Of a stretch of 32,315 bases of DNA, positions 273 to 32,315 are shown piece by piece. The stretch comes from a virus (Duplodnaviria; Heunggongvirae; Uroviricota; Caudoviricetes), in the IMG/VR virus record IMGVR_UViG_2740892235_000016, positions 1-32,315 of that record. One strand, written 5' to 3'. The notes beneath the pieces are model-generated. The model made no database searches. It saw only the letters and a program-made list of their open reading frames with translations, and was not told the origin of the DNA. The position numbers were made by a program, and so were the translations under genes. Positions within the stretch are counted from its first letter, which is position 1. Every line of letters starts with the position of its first letter.

Positions 273-653
273 ATGCGTGATATTCAGATGGTTCTTGAAC
301 GCTGGGGGGCATGGGCGGCAAGTGGTAACACCGGGGTGGACTATTCTCCGATCGCTGCCGGATTCAAAGGACTTTTACCATCTGCCACTAAACCACGTCC
401 GGCCTGCTGCGATGATGACGGACTTATCATTGAAAACTGTCTTGCTCGTCTGAAGCAGAAAAAACCTGAGGAGTATTCGCTTCTCATTGCTCATTATTTG
501 TTGCGAATATCAAAAAGACAGATAGCCAGGACGAGAAAGAAAAGCGAAAAAGCAATACGAATTGAGATGCAGATAGCCGAAGGGTTTATTGACGGATGTT
601 TGTCTGTGCTGGGGGTAAGACTGGAGATGGACGACTGGCTGCTAAAAAAGTAA
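273..653 (+). CDS. Q-family late-gene antiterminator, divergent paralog of the quuD-like gene at 2937..3320
   Basis: ORF track 258..653, ATG at 273 ([16 protein letters not shown]...); same N-terminal motif and length as copy 2 but divergent after residue ~20; sits directly after a DUF968 gene. Confidence 0.65.
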   Translation: MRDIQMVLERWGAWAASGNTGVDYSPIAAGFKGLLPSATKPRPACCDDDGLIIENCLARLKQKKPEEYSLLIAHYLLRISKRQIARTRKKSEKAIRIEMQIAEGFIDGCLSVLGVRLEMDDWLLKK

Positions 654-721
654 AAAATGATTAGCGCGGTCCGCAAAAAGTATGTCAGTATGTTAAGAGT
701 GGTTACTTCGCCACACAGCTT

Positions 722-746
722 AAACCCGCCGCGAGCGGGTTTTTTT
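722..746 (+). terminator. Rho-independent terminator (tR'-like) downstream of Q copy 1
   Basis: GC stem cccgc/gcggg with a 5-nt loop followed by a 7-T run (aaacccgccgcgagcgggttttttt). Confidence 0.6.
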
Positions 747-819
747 ATGGCTGAAATCGGTCCTGTACAGTAAACGCGCTGGTGGCGGTGAATATATGTC
801 TTTCAGCTTGCTGGCTTTT

Positions 820-848
820 TTGACAAGAGTTATTGGTGTGTCACGTTA
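820..848 (+). promoter_or_regulatory. Candidate sigma70 promoter for the small HTH ORF (perfect -35 TTGACA, weak -10)
   Basis: TTGACA at 820-825, 17-bp spacer, ACGTTA-like -10; the second copy (1990-1995) reads TCGACA. Confidence 0.3.
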
Positions 849-868
849 ACCGGAAAAGGGAAAAAGAC

Positions 869-1066
869 ATGCTGAAACAGCAGGATATGACAGAAACCGC
901 CAGAGCAGTGTTTAATGAATTAAGCGTCACCGAACCGGCGACAGTCGGGGAGATTGCGCAGAATACTTACCTTTCACGCGAACGCTGCCAGTTAATACTG
1001 ACCCAGCTTGTTATGGCGGGTCTGGCAGACTATCAGTTCGGTTGTTACAGACGCCTTCAGTCCTGA
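869..1066 (+). CDS. Small (65 aa) putative winged-helix/HTH DNA-binding protein of unknown function
   Basis: ORF with ATG at 869 preceded by AG-rich RBS (aaaagggaaaaagac); HTH-like segment TVGEIAQNTYLSRERCQLILTQLVMAGL; own terminator overlapping its stop codon; 5' end duplicated at 2039-2071. Confidence 0.5.
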   Translation: MLKQQDMTETARAVFNELSVTEPATVGEIAQNTYLSRERCQLILTQLVMAGLADYQFGCYRRLQS

Positions 1067-1076
1067 AGGCTTTTTT
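1053..1076 (+). terminator. Rho-independent terminator of the small HTH ORF
   Basis: gccttcag-tcc-ctgaaggc hairpin followed by TTTTTT; stop codon TGA lies inside the hairpin. Confidence 0.65.
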
Positions 1077-1189
1077 ATTTGTGGTAAATGGGCGGCTGGT
1101 GGGTGTTAGGGGCACTCACCAGCCATCTGCTCATGCGTTGGGGTCACAAGCAAACCTCAGGCCCATCTGCTTTGCGCAAAAGCGGTATG

Positions 1190-1265: not shown

Positions 1266-1796
1266 ATGATATATCCGGAAATTACAGGCAAAAGCGGCGA
1301 ACATTTACGCCTGAACACGCTGGAAGCAGTCTGGATCCAGGGGAAATTACGGATGTGGGGGCGGTGGTCGTATATAGGCGGGGGTAAATCCGGAAATATG
1401 TTTAACCGGTTACTGGTTTCGAAGAAGCTGACGAAAACAGCAGTTAATGAAGTTTTACGCAGAATGAAGAAATCCGGGCTGGATAAACCGGAACTTGAGG
1501 CATTTTTTCGGGATATGACCAGAGGGAAGCAGAAGAGCTGGTTGTCACATTGTACAGACACAGAGGCGTTGATTATTGATCGCGTTATCAGTGAGGTGCT
1601 TGGGGAATATCCCGGGCTAATCAATATTCTCCGGCAAAGGTACGAAGGACGGGGTATGAGTAAGAGAAAAATGGCAGAATGTTTAAATCGTACTCACCCG
1701 GAATGGTGCTTCAGCACATGTGAGAAACGTATTGCAGGTTGGTTAGCCGTGGCTGAACACATGCTTTATGTACCTATGCATGATTCATTTCGATAA
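1266..1796 (+). CDS. Q-family antiterminator-like protein (third, highly divergent Q paralog, 176 aa)
   Basis: ORF track 1254..1796, ATG at 1266; motif LRMWGRWSY parallels LERWGAWAA of the other two Q ORFs; C-terminal basic/HTH-like segment (GMSKRKMAECL...IAGWLAVAE) parallels the other Q proteins; followed by terminator-like hairpins. Confidence 0.5.
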   Translation: MIYPEITGKSGEHLRLNTLEAVWIQGKLRMWGRWSYIGGGKSGNMFNRLLVSKKLTKTAVNEVLRRMKKSGLDKPELEAFFRDMTRGKQKSWLSHCTDTEALIIDRVISEVLGEYPGLINILRQRYEGRGMSKRKMAECLNRTHPEWCFSTCEKRIAGWLAVAEHMLYVPMHDSFR

Positions 1797-1894
1797 AAAA
1801 AGCTTGCTTTTTTACGCAGAAACAGCTTGAATTCCTGTAAGCTTCGCAAAGCTGTATCGCGAGGCGAAACGCAAGTTTTTTTCGCACAAGGAAG

Positions 1895-1915
1895 CCACCG
1901 GAAGGTGGTTTTTTT
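1895..1915 (+). terminator. Rho-independent terminator downstream of the 176-aa Q-like gene
   Basis: ccacc-ggaa-ggtgg hairpin followed by a 7-T run; approximate coordinates. Confidence 0.5.
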
Positions 1916-1940
1916 GTGTCCGTAATATATAGCAGCGCAA

Positions 1941-2071
1941 TAAATTCGCTGGTGGTTATTAATACAGTTCTTTCAGCTTGCTGGCTTTTTCGACAAGAGT
2001 TATTGGTGTGTCACGTTAACCGGAAAAGGGAAAAAGACATGCTGAAACAGCAGGATATGACAGAAACCGCC
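1941..2071 (+). repeat. Direct repeat of 771-901 (last ~105 bp near-identical), including promoter-like region and 5' end of the small HTH ORF; truncated by the N gap
   Basis: Alignment by eye of 799-901 with 1969-2071 shows a single mismatch (T/C in the -35 hexamer); upstream 30 bp diverged. Confidence 0.85.
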
Positions 2072-2081: not shown

Positions 2082-2919
2082 CGCGGCATCACAACCGCTG
2101 GCGGATGATCCTGCCGTTCGGGCCGTGTTCCGTAATGAGGCAGTGATTCGTCGTGCTGGTGGGGTGGAATGTCTTGAAAGCTGGTTACTTCGTGAAAAAG
2201 GTTGCCAGTGGCCTCATTCCGACTGGCACAGCGAGAACATGACCACAATGCGACACGCGCCGGGCGCAATCCGTCTGTGCTGGCACTGCGATAATCAGTT
2301 ACGTGATCAGTTCACGGAGCGGCTGGAATCAATGGCAACGGATAACTGTGCCCATTGGGTGTTGTCTGTAGTCCGTCGGGATCTCGATTTTAATGATAAC
2401 CATGCCGTGACAATGCCGGAACTGTGCTGGTGGCTGGTTCGTAATGACCTGGCGGATGCCTTACCGGAAAGCGCAGCCCGTAAGGCACTGAGATTACCGA
2501 AGTCTGTTTTGCCGTCTGTCACCCGGGAAAGTGACCTTGTGCCTTCGGTTCCTGCCACCAGCATTATCCAGGATAAAGCGAAAAAGGTGCTGGCGCTGAA
2601 AGTGGATCCGGAGTCGCCGGAGTCTTTTATGTTACGCCCCAAACGTCGTCGCTGGGTTAATGAACAGTACACGCGCTGGGTTAAGACGCAGCCGTGTGCA
2701 TGTTGTGGAAAGCCAGCTGATGATCCGCATCATCTGATAGGCCATGGTCAGGGTGGAATGGGTACAAAAGCGCATGACCTTTTTGTGCTGCCTTTGTGCA
2801 GAAAACACCACGACGAACTGCATGCGGATACCGTGGCATTTGAAGAGAAGTATGGCTCCCAGCTGGAGCTGATATTTCGTTTTATCGATCGCGCACTGGC
2901 GATTGGTGTGCTGGCCTGA
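2082..2919 (+). CDS. DUF968-like prophage protein (Cys/His-rich C-terminus), 5' end truncated by the N gap
   Basis: Reading frame open from the gap through ORF 2125..2919; C-terminal 84 aa identical to the 1..255 fragment; CxxC and HH/H motifs. Confidence 0.65.
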
Positions 2920-2936
2920 TTTTGTGGAGAAAGTTA

Positions 2937-3320
2937 ATGCGTGATATTCAGATGGTTCTTGAACGTTGGGGAGCGTGGGCGGCTAATAATCATGAAGATG
3001 TGACCTGGTCGTCCATTGCCGCCGGTTTTAAGGGATTAATTCCTTCAAAAGTAAAATCTCGCCCGCAATGTTGTGACGATGACGCGATGATCATTTGCGG
3101 GTGCATGGCCCGTCTGAAAAAGAACAACAGCGATTTGCACGATTTATTAGTAGATTATTATGTAGTCGGTATGACATTCATGTCACTGGCAGGTAAGCAT
3201 TGCTGCTCTGATGGTTATATCGGGAAAAGGTTACAGAAGGCTGAGGGCATAATTGAAGGGATGTTAATGGCATTAGATATCCGGTTAGAGATGGATATCG
3301 TTGTTAATAACTCTAATTAA
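2937..3320 (+). CDS. quuD: Late-gene antiterminator Q, DLP12 QuuD-like (phage 82-type)
   Basis: ORF track 2922..3320 with ATG at 2937; 127-aa product [24 protein letters not shown]... matches my recollection of QuuD; located upstream of the nmpC-like porin and 21-type lysis genes as in DLP12. Confidence 0.7.
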
Positions 3321-3509: not shown

Positions 3510-4607
3510 TTAGAACTGGTAAACCAGACCTACAGCAACGATGTCATCAGTGCTTACACCGAGTGCTTTAGTGAAGTCATTTTTGTCAAGCAGGTTGATT
3601 TTGTAATCAACGAAAGTAGACATATTTTTGTTGAAGTAATAGGTTGCACCTACATCAACATATTTGACTAAGTCCTGATCGCCCCATACTCCAAGATCCT
3701 TACCTTTAGATTGCAGGTAAGCAACGGACGGACGCAGACCGAAATCGAACTGATATTGTGCAACAGCTTCGAAGTTTTGAGCTTTATTAGCAACGAAGTG
3801 ATCAGCAAATACAGTCATATTCTGGGTTTCAGAATAGGTAGTGGCCAGGTAAATGTTGTTAGCGTCATATTTCAGACCTGCGGCCCAAACTTCTGCATTT
3901 TTACCGGAAGCAAATACTTCAGGAAGAACTTTCCCTGCATTAACTTGAGTGTCGGTACGATCAGATTTCGCATAAGTTGCACCGATACCGAATCCTTCGT
4001 ATTCATAGGTAGCAGAGAAACCGAAGCCATCACCGTTACCTTCGGTGTAGTTATCGAAATCGCTACGATCGTTTTTGCCTTGGTACTGAGCAGCAAAGTT
4101 CAGACCATCAACCAGACCAAAGAAGTCGTTGTTACGATAGGTTGCAACACCAGTGGTGCGACCAGTCATGAACACATCTGTTTGGGTCCAGGTATCGCCA
4201 CCGAATTCTGGCAGAACGTCAGTCCACGCACCGATGTCGTATGCTACACCGTAGTTACGGCCGTAATCGATTGAGCCGTAGTCACCGAATTTCAGGCCTG
4301 CAAATGCAAGACGGGTTTTGTCTTTGGAGGAACCTTGAGATTCAGCGCGGTTGCCTTTGAATTCATATTCCCACTGACCGAAACCAGTCAGCTGATCGTT
4401 GATTTGGGTTTCGCCTTTGAAGCCCAGACGAACATAAGTAGTATCACCATCATCTGCATCGTTAGAGGAAAAGTAGTGCTTGGCATTAACTTTCCCGTAC
4501 AGATCCAGCTTGTTACTGTCTTTATTATAAATTTCAGCTGCCTGAGCAGACATCGCCATCAGTACTGATGCAGCTACAGCAGAAATTGCCACTGTTAATT
4601 TTTTCAT
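3510..4607 (-). CDS. nmpC: Outer membrane general porin, prophage-encoded NmpC/OmpD-like (OmpC family)
   Basis: 365-aa ORF with signal peptide [30 protein letters not shown]... and C-terminal ...VGLVYQF; matches remembered NmpC; strong RBS; AT-rich upstream region. Confidence 0.9.
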
Positions 4608-4965: not shown

Positions 4966-5195
4966 TCATTCAGTGGTTTACGTACGTAAAAAATTGGTTA
5001 TGCTGTTAAGAGTGGTTACTTCGTCACACAGCTTAAACCCGCCGTCGAGCTGGTTTTTCCATTTTTTGAGTCTCGATATTAGCTGATAACTCAATACCTG
5101 AGTTATTCACCGACTCGGAGTCAGTTACGTTTCTGCTTTTTTGCGATACGTTGTATTCCCTCAATTTACACCCGCTTTGTCTGCGAGGTGGGGTT

Positions 5196-28091: not shown

Positions 28092-31052
28092 ATGGCAGTA
28101 AAGATTTCAGGTGTACTGAAAGACGGCACAGGAAAACCGGTACAGAACTGCACAATCCAGCTGAAAGCAAAACGTAACAGCACCACGGTGGTGGTGAACA
28201 CGCTGGCCTCAGAAAATCCGGATGAAGCCGGGCGTTACAGCATGGACGTTGAGTACGGTCAGTACAGCGTTATTCTGTTGGTGGAAGGATTCCCGCCGTC
28301 ACATGCCGGGACCATCACCGTGTATGAAGATTCCCGACCCGGTACGCTGAATGATTTTCTCGGTGCCATGACGGAGGATGATGCCCGTCCGGAGGCTCTG
28401 CGCCGTTTTGAACTGATGGTGGAAGAGGTGACGCGTAACGCGTCCGCGGTGGCACAGAACACGGCAGCCGCGAAGAAGTCAGCCAGTGATGCCGGCACAT
28501 CTGCCCGTGAGGCGGCAACCCATGCGACTGATGCTGCAGGCTCAGCGCGTGCAGCCAGCACGTCAGCCGGACAGGCCGCGACTTCGGCTCAGGAGGCGTC
28601 TTCCAGCGCAGGAACGGCATCAACAAAGGCCACTGAAGCATCAAAAAGTGCTGCCGCTGCAGAGTCCTCAAAAAGCGCGGCGGCCACCAGTGCCGGTGCG
28701 GCGAAAACGTCAGAAACGAATGCTGCAGCGTCACAAAAATCAGCAGCCACTTCTGCATCCACTGCGACGACGAAAGCGTCAGAAGCCGCCACTTCAGCCA
28801 GAGATGCGGCGGCCTCCAAAGAGGCGGCAAAATCATCAGAAACGAACGCCTCCACAAGCGCCAGCAGTGCAGCCTCCTCGGCAACGGCGGCAGGAAATTC
28901 CGTGAAGGCGGCAAAAACGTCCGAGACGAATGCCAGGTCTTCTGAAACGGCAGCGGAACAGAGCGCCTCAGCTGCGGCAGACTCTGAGACAGCAGCTGCA
29001 TCATCGGCCCGTGAGGCGTCCATTAAGGCAGAGGAGGCAGCAGTCAGTGCCACCGCCGCCGGAAAATCGGCAGAAAGCGCCGCATCATCCGCTTCAACAG
29101 CCACAACGAAGGCTGGCGAAGCCACTGAACAGGCCAGCGCAGCAGCGAGGTCTGCTTCCGCAGCGAAGACATCCGAAACGAACGCGAAAGCGTCGGAAAC
29201 CAGCGCAGAATCCTCAAAAACGGCTGCCGCATCGTCCGCCAGTTCGGCGGCGTCATCGGCATCATCTGCGTCTGCTTCAAAAGATGAGGCGACCAGACAG
29301 GCGTCAGCAGCGAGGGGCAGCGCCACGACGGCATCCACGAAGGCGACAGAGGCTGCTGGCAGTGCGGCAGCGGCAGCACAGAGCAAAAGTACGGCGGAAT
29401 CCGCGGCAACGCGCGCCGAGACAGCAGCAAAACGGGCAGAGGATATTGCATCCGCCGTGGCGCTTGAGGATGCGAGCACGACGAAAAAGGGGATAGTACA
29501 GCTCAGCAGTGCGACCAACAGCACTTCCGAGTCACAGGCGGCAACGCCAAAAGCCGTTAAGGCCGCGTATGACCTGGCTAACGGGAAATACACCGCACAG
29601 GATGCAACGACAGCACAGAAAGGGATAGTTCAGCTCAGCAGTGCGACTAACAGCACTTCCGAGTCACAGGCGGCAACGCCAAAAGCCGTTAAGGCCGCGT
29701 ATGACCTGGCTAACGGGAAATACACCGCACAGGACGCTACGACAGCACAAAAAGGAATTGTCCAGCTCAGTAGTGCAACCAACAGCACATCTGAAACGCT
29801 TGCTGCGACACCGAAAGCAGTGAAAGCAGCTAATGACAATGCGAATGGTCGGGTACCTTCTGCCCGTAAGGTGAATGGTAAGGCGCTTTCAGCGGATATA
29901 ACACTGACGCCGAAAGATATTGGTACGCTTAACTCAACAACAATGTCATTCAGCGGTGGTGCTGGTTGGTTCAAATTAGCAACGGTAACCATGCCACAGG
30001 CGAGTTCTGTTGTTTCAATTACGTTGATTGGTGGCGCTGGATTTAACGTGGGGTCACCTCAACAGGCAGGTATATCTGAACTTGTTTTACGTGCAGGTAA
30101 TGGTAATCCGAAGGGGATTACTGGTGCTTTATGGCAGCGCACATCGACAGGGTTTACAAATTTTGCCTGGGTCAATACATCTGGTGATACTTACGATATT
30201 TACGTTGCAATCGGAAATTATGCGACTGGTGTAAATATTCAATGGGATTATACCAGTAATGCCAGCGTGACGATTCATACGTCACCAGCATATTCTGCTA
30301 ATAAGCCGGAAGGGTTAACGGACGGTACAGTTTATTCACTCTATACGCCATCAGAGCAGTTTTATCCGCCTGGCGCACCAATCCCGTGGCCATCAGATAC
30401 CGTTCCGTCTGGCTATGCCCTGATGCAGGGGCAGACTTTTGACAAATCTGCATACCCGAAACTTGCAGCCGCTTATCCGTCAGGCGTGATCCCTGATATG
30501 CGTGGCTGGACGATTAAGGGCAAACCTGCCAGTGGTCGGGCCGTATTGTCTCAGGAACAGGACGGCATTAAATCGCATACCCACAGCGCCAGCGCATCCA
30601 GTACGGATTTGGGGACGAAAACCACATCGTCGTTTGATTACGGCACTAAATCCACGAATAACACTGGTGCGCATACCCATAGTTTAAGTGGCAGCACGAA
30701 TGCAGCTGGTAATCACAGCCATAGAGATGGCCGTCGATTTAACCCCAGTGTTTTTAAAGATACTTATCAATATGGTTATACAAGCTCAGGTCAAAATACC
30801 TGGGGTGTACAAGGCTCAGTAGGTATGTCTACGGGGTGGTTAGCGAATACCAGTACAGATGGTAATCATAGCCATTCACTGTCCGGCACAGCAGCATCTG
30901 CAGGTGCACACGCGCATACTGTCGGTATTGGTGCTCATACGCACTCCGTTGCGATTGGTTCACATGGACACACCATCACCGTTAACGCTGCTGGTAACGC
31001 GGAAAACACCGTCAAAAACATCGCATTTAACTATATTGTGAGGCTTGCATAA
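28092..31052 (+). CDS. stf: Side tail fibre protein Stf (intact, ~986 aa) with Ala/Ser/Thr-rich shaft, three tandem 44-aa fibre repeats and His-rich C-terminal domain
   Basis: ORF track 28086..31052, ATG at 28092 ([26 protein letters not shown]...); C-terminus ...[22 protein letters not shown] with multiple HxH motifs; lambda-Stf-like N- and C-termini. Confidence 0.93.
29478..29873 (+). repeat. Three tandem in-frame 132-bp repeats inside stf (phage tail fibre repeat motif [15 protein letters not shown]...TPKAVKAA)
   Basis: KGIVQ codons recur at ~29490, ~29622 and ~29754; copies 1 and 2 nearly identical at nucleotide level, copy 3 diverged; boundaries approximate. Confidence 0.85.
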
Positions 31053-31627
31053 TGGCATTCAGAATGAGTGAACAACCACGGACCATAAAAATTTATAATC
31101 TGCTGGCCGGAACTAATGAATTTATTGGTGAAGGTGACGCATATATTCCGCCTCATACAGGTCTGCCAGCAAACAGTACCGATATTGCACCACCAGATAT
31201 TCCTGCTGGCTTTGTGGCTGTTTTCAACAGTGATAAGGCATCGTGGCATCTCGTTGAAGACCATCGGGGTAAAACGGTTTATGACGTAGCGTCAGGGGAC
31301 GCGTTATTTATTTCTGAACTCGGTCCGTTACCGGAAAATGTTACCTGGTTATCGCCGGAAGGGGAGTTTCAGAAGTGGAACGGCACAGCCTGGGTGAAAG
31401 ATGCAGAAGCAGAAAAACTGTTCCGGATCCGAGAGGCGGAAGAAACAAAAAACAGCCTGATGCAGGTAGCCAGTGAGCATATTGCGCCACTTCAGGATGC
31501 TGTAGATCTGGAAATCGCAACGGAGGAAGAAACCTCATTGCTGGAAGCCTGGAAAAAGTATCGGGTGTTGCTGAACCGTGTTGATACGTCAACTGCACAG
31601 GATATTGAATGGCCAGCACTGCCGTAG
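31052..31627 (+). CDS. tfa: Tail fibre assembly protein Tfa
   Basis: 191 aa, [54 protein letters not shown]...; start overlaps stf stop (TAATG). Confidence 0.95.
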
Positions 31628-31724: not shown

Positions 31725-32315
31725 TTATATGTCAGGTGTCTGAAGTTTTGCTTTGGCTCTTAAAATGGTTTGCCGCGAGGTTTTGAATTCCCGGGCAATG
31801 GCACTTATACTTACACCTGACTTAATTCGTTCGAATACCACCTGTTTCTGTTCTTCATTTAACACAGGTGGTCGACCAAAACGTTTCCCTGCGCCGCGGG
31901 CTCTTACTATCCCGGAATGAGTGCGTTCAAGTAAAAGGTCTCGTTCAAATTCAGCGACTGCTGAAATTACGTGCATCATCATTTTTCCTGTTGGACTGGT
32001 CAGGTCAATGCCCCCCAATGCTAAGCAATGCACTCTGATACCTGTTTCGGTCAGTTGTTCCACTGTTTTCCTGATATCCATTGCATTACAACCAAGGCGA
32101 TCCAGTTTTGTCACAATCAATTGATCACCACATTTCAGGCGAGCAAGCAACCGGTTAAAACCAGGACGCTCACTGGTTGCTGCTGAGCCGCTAATGTGTT
32201 CTTCGATTATTTGCTGAGGTTTGATTTTAAAACCTGCACTTTCGATTTCCCTGCGTTGATTTTCGATGGTCTGATCCAGCGTTGATATCCGACAGTAAGC
32301 AAAAATTCGAGACAT
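31725..32315 (-). CDS. Serine recombinase (resolvase/DNA-invertase family), complete 196-aa ORF whose start codon is the last three bases of the window
   Basis: N-terminal catalytic motif [12 protein letters not shown] (active-site Ser), central ...[11 protein letters not shown]..., GRPP linker and C-terminal HTH ([18 protein letters not shown]); convergent with tfa. Confidence 0.85.

Follow-up and report, generated by a model that had tools for sequence, protein, structure and literature searches.

The window analysed here is the whole 32,315-nucleotide (nt) stretch of tailed-phage DNA (Caudoviricetes) of IMG/VR virus record IMGVR_UViG_2740892235_000016, and the gene under study is an open reading frame (ORF) on its plus strand (869–1066; ATG at 869, TGA at 1064–1066), which encodes a protein of 65 amino acids (WP_000917735.1), as the original prediction had it. 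The ORF is a real, selected, widely conserved but uncharacterised prophage late gene. Moreover, we infer with a probability of roughly 55% that it is a Q-dependent gene belonging to a module that controls a DNA methylase, and that the module gates this enzyme, the protein having an exact role that may be one of several. In many lambdoid prophages of Enterobacterales, the ORF would open the late operon, 3′ of the late promoter pR′ and the terminator tR′; the module would consist of the ORF, a hairpin terminator overlapping its stop codon, a leader of 131–137 nt, and a methylase of the M.EcoGII type, followed in phages of Escherichia coli strains that produce Shiga toxin (STEC) by tRNAs and stx2AB.

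The 65-residue protein and its place in the late operon

The reading frame is kept at 63–67 amino acids across 33 diverged loci (Escherichia, Salmonella, Klebsiella, Citrobacter, Kluyvera, Buttiauxella, Pantoea, Mixta, Proteus, Providencia, Plesiomonas, and others), and 36 members of a set of 38 loci, drawn from many genera, have it intact. The median ratio of non-synonymous to synonymous divergence (dN/dS) is 0.08 in the closer group of loci, at a dS of approximately 1.3, and the column entropy of the ORF amounts to 0.75, 0.57, and 1.33 at codon positions 1, 2, and 3, respectively, the third positions being the most variable. The codons GAT ATG AC (D6-M7-T8) are invariant in the aligned loci, third positions included. 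Decaying copies were seen in Erwinia tracheiphila (locus L029), in which the stop codon of the ORF is lost and the methylase is frameshifted, and in Mangrovibacter (L038), in which a premature stop occurs at codon 23.

The protein had not been recognised in the original prediction; it is a member of PHROG 331, a phage family of function not known (E = 1.7e-37, 128.5 bits; residues 1–64 on positions 35–98 of a 111-position profile), and it is named in RefSeq as either "TrmB family transcriptional regulator" or "hypothetical protein". The family is a narrow one, with 340 clusters at 90% identity but just 63 representatives at 50%, and its named sources are all Enterobacterales, except for two probably mislabelled assemblies: a Bacillus sp. 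metagenome-assembled genome (L012) and a Chryseobacterium sp. (L021) carry Enterobacterales-type sequence with 100% and 78% protein identity, respectively, probably through contamination or mis-binning. Pfam returned no match at the gathering score, with TrmB, HTH_24, and MarR_2 below the threshold, and no NCBIfam model matches the protein. The TrmB label in RefSeq comes from this sub-threshold similarity, and membership of the family (PF01978) was rejected at 18.9 bits compared with a cut-off of 25.6 (E = 0.0013); characterised TrmB proteins carry an effector-binding C-terminal domain, for which 65 amino acids leave no room. An AlphaFold2 model built from a 24-sequence alignment (predicted local distance difference test, pLDDT, of 92.5) shows three helices followed by a beta hairpin. 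The predicted fold is a winged helix-turn-helix (HTH) of the MarR/ArsR-like superfamily with the hairpin as the wing, in agreement with the HTH-like segment noticed at the outset, and its closest structural neighbours are MarR-, ArsR-, and IclR-type regulators that bind DNA.

These data bear on the opposite explanation, in which the ORF is a chance reading frame within a conserved non-coding late leader. Such a frame could be short and could lie in a region rich in regulatory RNA signals, as this one does; nevertheless, the low dN/dS at the dS reached, the frame kept across 33 loci, the PHROG 331 match, and the pLDDT of the model all speak for a coding gene, and the probability of a chance frame is negligible. 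A non-coding late leader of the 6S or StxS type was likewise rejected for the ORF region, on the same dN/dS value and on the presence of a separate short pR′–tR′ unit upstream (~669–748).

Annotated orthologues occupy the same position in phiP27 (L23), SfV (orf47), and, unnamed, mEp460, cdtI, 1720a-02, and Stx2c phages, with 50–98% protein identity, and are annotated there as unknown, as hypothetical, or as a "TrmB family transcriptional regulator". A literature search by accession numbers and by the Q–stx interval found no functional study of the ORF. This lack of literature is probably due to the fact that the best-studied Stx2 phages, those of the 933W/Sp5 type, contain neither the ORF nor the methylase.

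The ORF lies downstream of a PF06530-type antiterminator Q gene of 126 amino acids (273–653, plus strand; Pfam Phage_antitermQ, E = 1.6e-52; WP_001204806.1 in a 100% identical complete genome). A putative pR′/qut block with a short leader follows at 669–721 (plus strand), its position assigned by analogy, and then a tR′-like intrinsic terminator at 722–748 (plus strand; 8-bp stem and T7; −12.6 kcal/mol). The block is repeated with 84% identity at 4982–5044, just 5′ of the lysis genes of a third prophage that is without the cassette, and its TGTTAAGAGTGGTYAC motif is common to other loci with a PF06530-type Q. A hairpin and then a T-run precede the ORF start by ~60–145 nt in 31 of 31 aligned loci, with a GC-rich stem and T6–7 in nearly all of them; for instance, the terminator of the second prophage represented in the window (1893–1915, plus strand) reads CCACC-GGAA-GGTGG with T7 (−19.4 kcal/mol, z = −5.5). 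In loci with a lambda-type Q (PF03589), TAACGATGGG-type elements are found 5′ of that terminator; TAACGATGGG resembles what we take to be the pause-inducing element of lambda pR′.

By this analogy, the order reads Q, pR′ with its leader, tR′, and ORF, and the pR′, qut, and short terminated transcript that were expected directly after Q have candidates exactly there. Since the block and the terminator (~669–748) lie between Q and the ORF, the latter occupies the usual accessory slot after tR′, which it shares with the other accessory genes of lambdoid phages (stx, tRNAs, nanS-p, and small RNAs) between tR′ and the lysis genes. This slot is the normal site of morons, tRNAs, and stx (PMC4104026), and accessory genes placed after pR′–tR′ are expressed in a Q-dependent manner (PMC4104026, PMC6266700); the earlier view that a protein-coding cassette is unexpected at this position is therefore withdrawn. 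The whole Q–stx interval has been treated as the "pR′ region", with the genes therein unmentioned (PMC6266700).

The original prediction also described a promoter–ORF–terminator cassette with a perfect TTGACA −35 element. The ORF and the terminator hold, and so does the hexamer itself (820–825), but its reading as a promoter element does not. A sigma-70 scan of 600–2200 on both strands returned 0 sites, with 1.8 expected by chance; at 15–19 nt from TTGACA no hexamer combines an A in its second position with a T in its sixth, and none is −10-like. In relatives, the same position is occupied by TCGACA, TATACA, or GCAACC, TTGACA being a variant of a single lineage. The hexamer is held within a conserved block, CTTGCTG-N13-CAGAGTTAY-N2-GTRTG-TCA (807–845, plus strand), which lies upstream of the ORF in every genus of the alignment and in which CTTG and AGAG-TA are invariant across 31 loci; when every register of this block was read by eye as a −10 element, none had a T at −7. 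The 5′ untranslated region of the ORF, including this block, yielded no consensus RNA structure with RNAalifold, and the pairings CUUGCUG/CAGCAGG and GUAUGUC/GACAUGC of the minimum free energy (MFE) fold in E. coli were rejected as they are broken in Klebsiella, Enterobacter, Proteus, and Plesiomonas. A search of the upstream block against Rfam gave no gathering-score match in the window and only chance-level matches at relaxed E-values. As judged from sequence, there is no convincing promoter belonging to the ORF, which may still possess an unconventional one.

This result bears on the suggestion that the cassette is an autonomous moron, with its own sigma-70 promoter, ORF, and terminator, expressed in lysogens independently of Q. 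A moron of this kind would account for TTGACA at 820–825 and for the good terminator directly 3′ of the ORF, it would occupy a known moron site after tR′ (PMC4104026), and the invariant CTTGCTG - 17 nt - TAYNNG, at promoter spacing in all genera, could serve it as a weak or activator-dependent promoter. The empty sigma-70 scan, the confinement of TTGACA to one lineage, and the lack of a candidate −10 with T at −7 contradict it, as do a GC content of 0.47–0.52 in the cassette compared with 0.44–0.55 in its flanks and 0.42 in stx2, and a fixed distance between the ORF and methylase starts in 88% of loci, as would be expected of an operon member rather than of a free cassette. Classic morons have their own promoter and terminator and an atypical composition, whereas here a terminator is accompanied by no detectable promoter, ordinary composition, and a fixed two-gene module; an autonomous moron is thus quite unlikely.

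The methylase and its structured leader

In the 190 loci with enough downstream sequence, a PF01555 methylase gene (~350 amino acids) starts 337–354 nt after the ORF start in 167, and exactly 348 nt after it in 120; 142–154 nt separate the ORF stop from the methylase AUG. The upstream Q genes belong to four unrelated families (PF03589, 50; PF06323, 48; DUF1133, 47; PF06530, 40), and the recurrence of the cassette after different Q genes, as first noticed for two of them, is thereby confirmed on a broader basis. In the complete genomes and phages checked, the methylase is followed either by tRNAs and stx2 or directly by the lysis genes. The module is present in ~45% of complete E. coli genomes, in up to 7 copies per genome, and lies between Q and stx2 in many Stx2a, Stx2c, Stx2d, and Stx2e phages. 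Scans of viral and metagenome sequences yielded nothing but close relatives from E. coli, at 95% identity or more, which served for linkage counts but not for covariation.

The methylase downstream of the ORF comprises 352 amino acids (PF01555, E = 6.9e-44) and is an orphan beta-class adenine enzyme, with a DPPY motif read near its N-terminus. Over a stretch that runs from the ORF through the leader and 437 nt into the methylase gene, the DNA is 97% identical to phage 1720a-02, whose enzyme is very similar to M.EcoGII (PMC5778455); the M.EcoGII type is assigned through this identity and that report. Neither M.EcoGII nor M.EcoGI is reported to be expressed in the lysogen, and their constitutive expression is deleterious (PMC5778455). 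Both are beta-class, orphan, prophage-borne enzymes, and the methylase of the module would be of this family; the small ORF upstream and the leader are undescribed in PMC5778455, the bioinformatic section of which names only flanking phage genes. PADLOC assigned only its Type II MTase model to the methylase and gave a weak SWIM_XIII match for the ORF (E = 0.0012); a defence or restriction–modification (R–M) system was rejected, as no partner genes are present and the neighbours are Q, the methylase, tRNA, and stx or lysis genes.

The terminator said to overlap the stop codon of the ORF is indeed present as hairpin P0 (1053–1080, plus strand), with a stem at 1053–1070 followed by the T-run TTTTTTATTT, an energy of −10.5 kcal/mol (z = −3.2), and the UGA stop as the first bases of its 3′ arm. 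P0 is kept with compensatory changes across Enterobacteriaceae, its T-tract being perfect only in the E. coli/Shigella lineage and degenerate outside it, and the ORF stop falls in the loop or the 3′ arm in most genera. Copies in Proteus and Providencia have no such hairpin. P0 is also retained in the ORF-less phages Flotzy, LLS, and Eeyore, and hence is no less a part of the methylase leader than of the ORF. This geometry could suit a leader-ORF attenuator, in which a ribosome at the stop codon inside the hairpin would block its folding and let the polymerase enter the methylase gene, and both the placement of the stop in most genera and the compensatory changes agree with such a device. Nevertheless, the dN/dS of 0.08 and the confidently predicted domain indicate that the protein itself is selected, the ORF-less phages keep the hairpin, and Proteus and Providencia do without it, so an attenuator of this design is highly improbable.

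Between the ORF and the methylase lies a spacer that is more conserved than the ORF: the column entropy of the leader core is 0.50, compared with 0.57 at codon position 2 and 1.33 at codon position 3 of the ORF. The window holds only the first 103 nt of this leader (1087–1189, plus strand), which is cut by an assembly gap; a covariance-model match extends over 1087–1214 with 59.9 bits. The full leader is found at locus L001 (6433–6566), and the distance from AATGGGC to the methylase AUG is always 131–137 nt. The predicted fold, alike in nearly all genera, consists of a long hairpin of P1 and P2 with ~19 bp and a closed domain of P3–P6, the outer helix of which (P3, GGUCA/UGAUC) has its predicted 3′ strand ending 1–2 nt before the methylase AUG; no Shine–Dalgarno (SD) sequence precedes this AUG. 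The E. coli leader has an MFE of −61.3 kcal/mol (z = −4.7), and the Proteus leader one of −48.5 kcal/mol (z = −5.2).

Covariation supports the fold in two alignments. A plain MAFFT alignment has 93.5% of its cells paired and 13 pairs changed on both sides, values reached in 0 of 500 shuffles, with slid controls attaining at most 42%; the corresponding values in a model-fitted alignment of 40 sequences, which by its construction leans towards structure, are 95.4% and 14 pairs, the latter chiefly in P2 and P4 (0 of 500 shuffles; slid controls at most 41%). The leader is not in Rfam, whether searched in the window at the gathering score, in L001 5950–6650 at E ≤ 10, or in four diverse loci at E ≤ 0.1. 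Weak matches to isrK, Trp_leader, STnc260, P9, and P26 were discarded as chance-level and not reproduced in Salmonella, and known prophage small RNAs were also set aside, AsxR/EcOnc02 lying 3′ of stx2B and Pas and STnc100 in other contexts. A frame of 45 codons (MGGWWVLGAL...) runs through the E. coli leader with its stop over the methylase start (L001 6434–6571); it is probably not a gene, for it shrinks to 16 amino acids in Klebsiella and reads MGDSEDA... in Proteus, the base pairing being conserved and the peptide not.

Proposed mechanism and the role of the protein

In the proposed mechanism, pR′ transcripts in the lysogen would end at tR′ and any read-through would end at the hairpin after the ORF, thereby keeping a deleterious methylase silent. 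Upon induction, Q-modified RNA polymerase would pass both terminators, and the ORF, leader, and methylase would be transcribed together; the leader fold, with its last helix 1–2 nt before an AUG devoid of an SD sequence, would then gate translation of the methylase post-transcriptionally. The winged-helix protein would most likely tune the module, whether by regulating it or by partnering the methylase or the leader. As the leader and methylase occur without the ORF in some phages, the protein would not be strictly required.

A number of points weigh against a methylase-controlling module of this kind. The ORF is intact but the methylase replaced in 23 of the 190 loci, and, conversely, the isolated E. 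coli phages Eeyore (L206), LLS (L207), and Flotzy (L208) possess the hairpin, leader, and methylase but no ORF, Flotzy keeping just its last few codons; the protein therefore cannot be an obligatory activator. At least three protein subtypes precede nearly one and the same leader, which means that protein and leader do not co-vary. The family is mostly acidic (isoelectric point, pI, of 4.6–6.8 in 13 of 16 members, and 5.1 in the 65-residue protein), which is unusual for a stand-alone nucleic-acid binder; consequently, the RefSeq label "transcriptional regulator" fits poorly. Taken together, the ORF-less phages, the three subtypes, and the acidity argue against a strict activator role, and the protein may be a repressor or limiter, a methylase-binding partner, or a DNA-binding protein of unrelated function. 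A single clade (Proteus/Providencia and Plesiomonas) contributes most of the leader's double changes, which thus represent few independent events; the block at 807–845 could be a weak or activator-dependent promoter; and the sources searched hold no transcript, protein, or binding data for the ORF.

In a different explanation, the protein is an independent transcription factor that acts on promoters of the phage or the host by binding DNA, and its adjacency to the methylase reflects no more than shared ancestry in a mosaic block. The fold comes closest to DNA-binding regulators such as those of the MarR, ArsR, and IclR types, the sub-threshold Pfam matches (TrmB, HTH_24, and MarR_2) point in the same direction, and the 23 loci with a replaced methylase retain an intact ORF. 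Set against this, the family is mostly acidic, 65 amino acids provide no dimerisation or ligand domain, and no Pfam model matches at its gathering score. In addition, the methylase-less loci are 95–100% identical to loci with the methylase, except for a truncated copy in L030 (76%), and hence look like recent Chi-associated replacements rather than long-term retention of the ORF alone. A free-standing transcription factor is therefore unlikely, although it merits some weight.

Returning to the methylase-controlling module, its closest known analogy, with unrelated parts, is the com–mom operon of phage Mu, in which a tiny protein gene lies directly 5′ of a host-harming DNA-modification gene within a late unit, with RNA structure over the start of the latter. 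Mu Com is a zinc-finger RNA-binding protein, com overlaps mom, and Mom is not an S-adenosylmethionine-dependent methylase. The likeness consists in a small gene before a harmful modification gene, the late unit, an RNA structure (predicted here) in the start region, and expression held off (here presumably) until lytic growth. In contrast, the present protein is predicted to be a winged helix without a Cys4 motif, its only cysteines being C40 and C59, the two genes are 142–154 nt apart, and some phages lack the small gene; RNA binding by the protein would be hypothetical. The C proteins of R–M systems are another comparison: these Xre-type HTH dimers work through C-boxes in the promoter of their own gene, and a restriction enzyme goes with them. 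A small HTH protein just 5′ of a modification gene that needs timing, and (here presumably) co-transcription of the two, are shared features, whereas the locus studied here has a winged helix and no restriction gene, and no C-box-like dyad was found at it.

The boldest form of the proposal would be that protein and leader together constitute an undescribed post-transcriptional switch, com–mom-like in logic and built from unrelated parts, which licenses a toxic, non-specific adenine methylase only in lytic growth. This form is improbable; if true, the leader would be a new cis-regulatory RNA motif, the protein a new RNA- or methylase-binding winged helix, and the switch would stand directly 5′ of stx2 in many STEC phages.

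Assembly, mosaic borders, and significance

Runs of ten N at 1190–1199 and 2072–2081 identify the window as a scaffold of three contigs. Contig 1 (1–1189) comprises the 3′ end of a DUF968 gene (1–255), which is the upstream neighbour of the PF06530-type Q, then this Q and the 65-codon ORF with ~100 nt beyond it; the rest of the leader and the 352-amino-acid methylase are found in complete genomes where the gap at 1190–1199 stands. Contig 2 (1200–2071) carries the end of rusA, a Q-like DUF1133 gene of 176 amino acids (1266–1796, plus strand; Pfam DUF1133, E = 1.1e-110, and less strongly Phage_antitermQ; PHROG 753, "anti-termination protein Q-like"), and the first 134 nt of a second cassette copy. 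From 2082 onwards, the remainder is the late region of a DLP12-like prophage, with DUF968, a third Q (2922–3320), an nmpC-like porin on the minus strand, and lysis, terminase, head, and tail genes.

The second copy (1938–2071, plus strand) includes a Chi site and the conserved block, and it reaches 11 codons into the ORF (2039–2071) before it ends at the N run. As was claimed initially, the promoter region and 5′ end of the ORF recur after the 176-residue Q-like gene, with TCGACA in place of TTGACA; the direct repeat (768–901 and 1938–2071) is 92% identical. A truncated cassette was rejected, since the copy stops at the gap and a full 65-codon ORF follows the DUF1133 gene in the complete genome NZ_CP031906 (O91:H21). 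Both contigs occur in this genome with 100% identity in two different prophages, and the annotated order at its DUF1133 locus is Q, the 65-codon ORF, methylase, tRNA Ile/Arg/Arg, and stx2AB; the same order is found in NZ_CP027449, a 100% identical copy of the PF06530 context. Contigs 1 and 2 are therefore fragments with repeats at their ends, each from a different Stx2 prophage, which have been joined to a DLP12-like late region, and the fact that both short contigs stop inside genomic repeats is typical of short-read assemblies. Two different Q genes (273–653 and 1266–1796) do precede the cassette in biological terms, but, given the gaps and the separate prophages of the complete genome, it was scaffolding that placed them next to each other in the window.

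In the DLP12-like part, the third Q is parted from the pR′-like block at 4982–5044 by the minus-strand porin gene (3510–4607) and an AT-rich stretch, the holin gene starts at ~5198, and the terminator after the block looks degenerate (ccgccgtcgagctggtttttcc). At the far end of the window, an Rfam IS009 match (226.7 bits; 31395–31593) lies inside or beside a tail-fibre assembly gene (31052–31627), and a Pin-like resolvase/invertase gene occupies 31725–32315 on the minus strand.

All six Chi sites of the window fall in its first 2.6 kb, five of them on the plus strand, with 1.5 expected for the entire window. The Chi octamer GCTGGTGG occurs on the plus strand at 778–785, where homology between the two copies begins, at 1948–1955, where the homology of copy 2 begins, and at 1095–1102, inside leader helix P2, so that two sites (778–785 and 1095–1102) flank the cassette; the other three are located at 2155–2162 (plus), 2426–2433 (plus), and 2555–2562 (minus). 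The 23 methylase-less loci also lack the tRNA and stx genes, where these would otherwise be present, and in most of them homology breaks right after GGCTGGTGGGTG, in helix P2. Two of these loci were examined for the genes that follow: in L055 (3696–6735), a DUF1737/SASA/DUF6645 esterase (NanS-p-like) is found ~1 kb 3′ of the ORF, and in L072 (2057–2910), an AraC-family regulator follows the ORF. In Proteus and Providencia, both arms of P2 are changed while Chi is lost, which indicates that structure is the primary constraint; Chi is a possible second function of P2 that would explain the mosaic borders. For RecBCD, a plus-strand Chi in a late operon running towards cos is so oriented that it can act on an enzyme that comes in from the right cos end.

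The ORF as first described is mostly ordinary, that is, an annotated hypothetical gene in a standard accessory slot, and its oddity arose largely from a scaffolded draft assembly. The part deserving attention is the module, and within it chiefly the leader of the methylase, which is unannotated. As an adenine methylase without sequence specificity, M.EcoGII is unusual, and its natural regulation is undescribed in the papers searched. The Chi sites at the borders of the module offer a concrete handle on the mosaic reshuffling of Stx phages. If the leader, the protein, or both gate the methylase, they would also shape what the late transcript passes before it reaches stx2 and the lysis genes.

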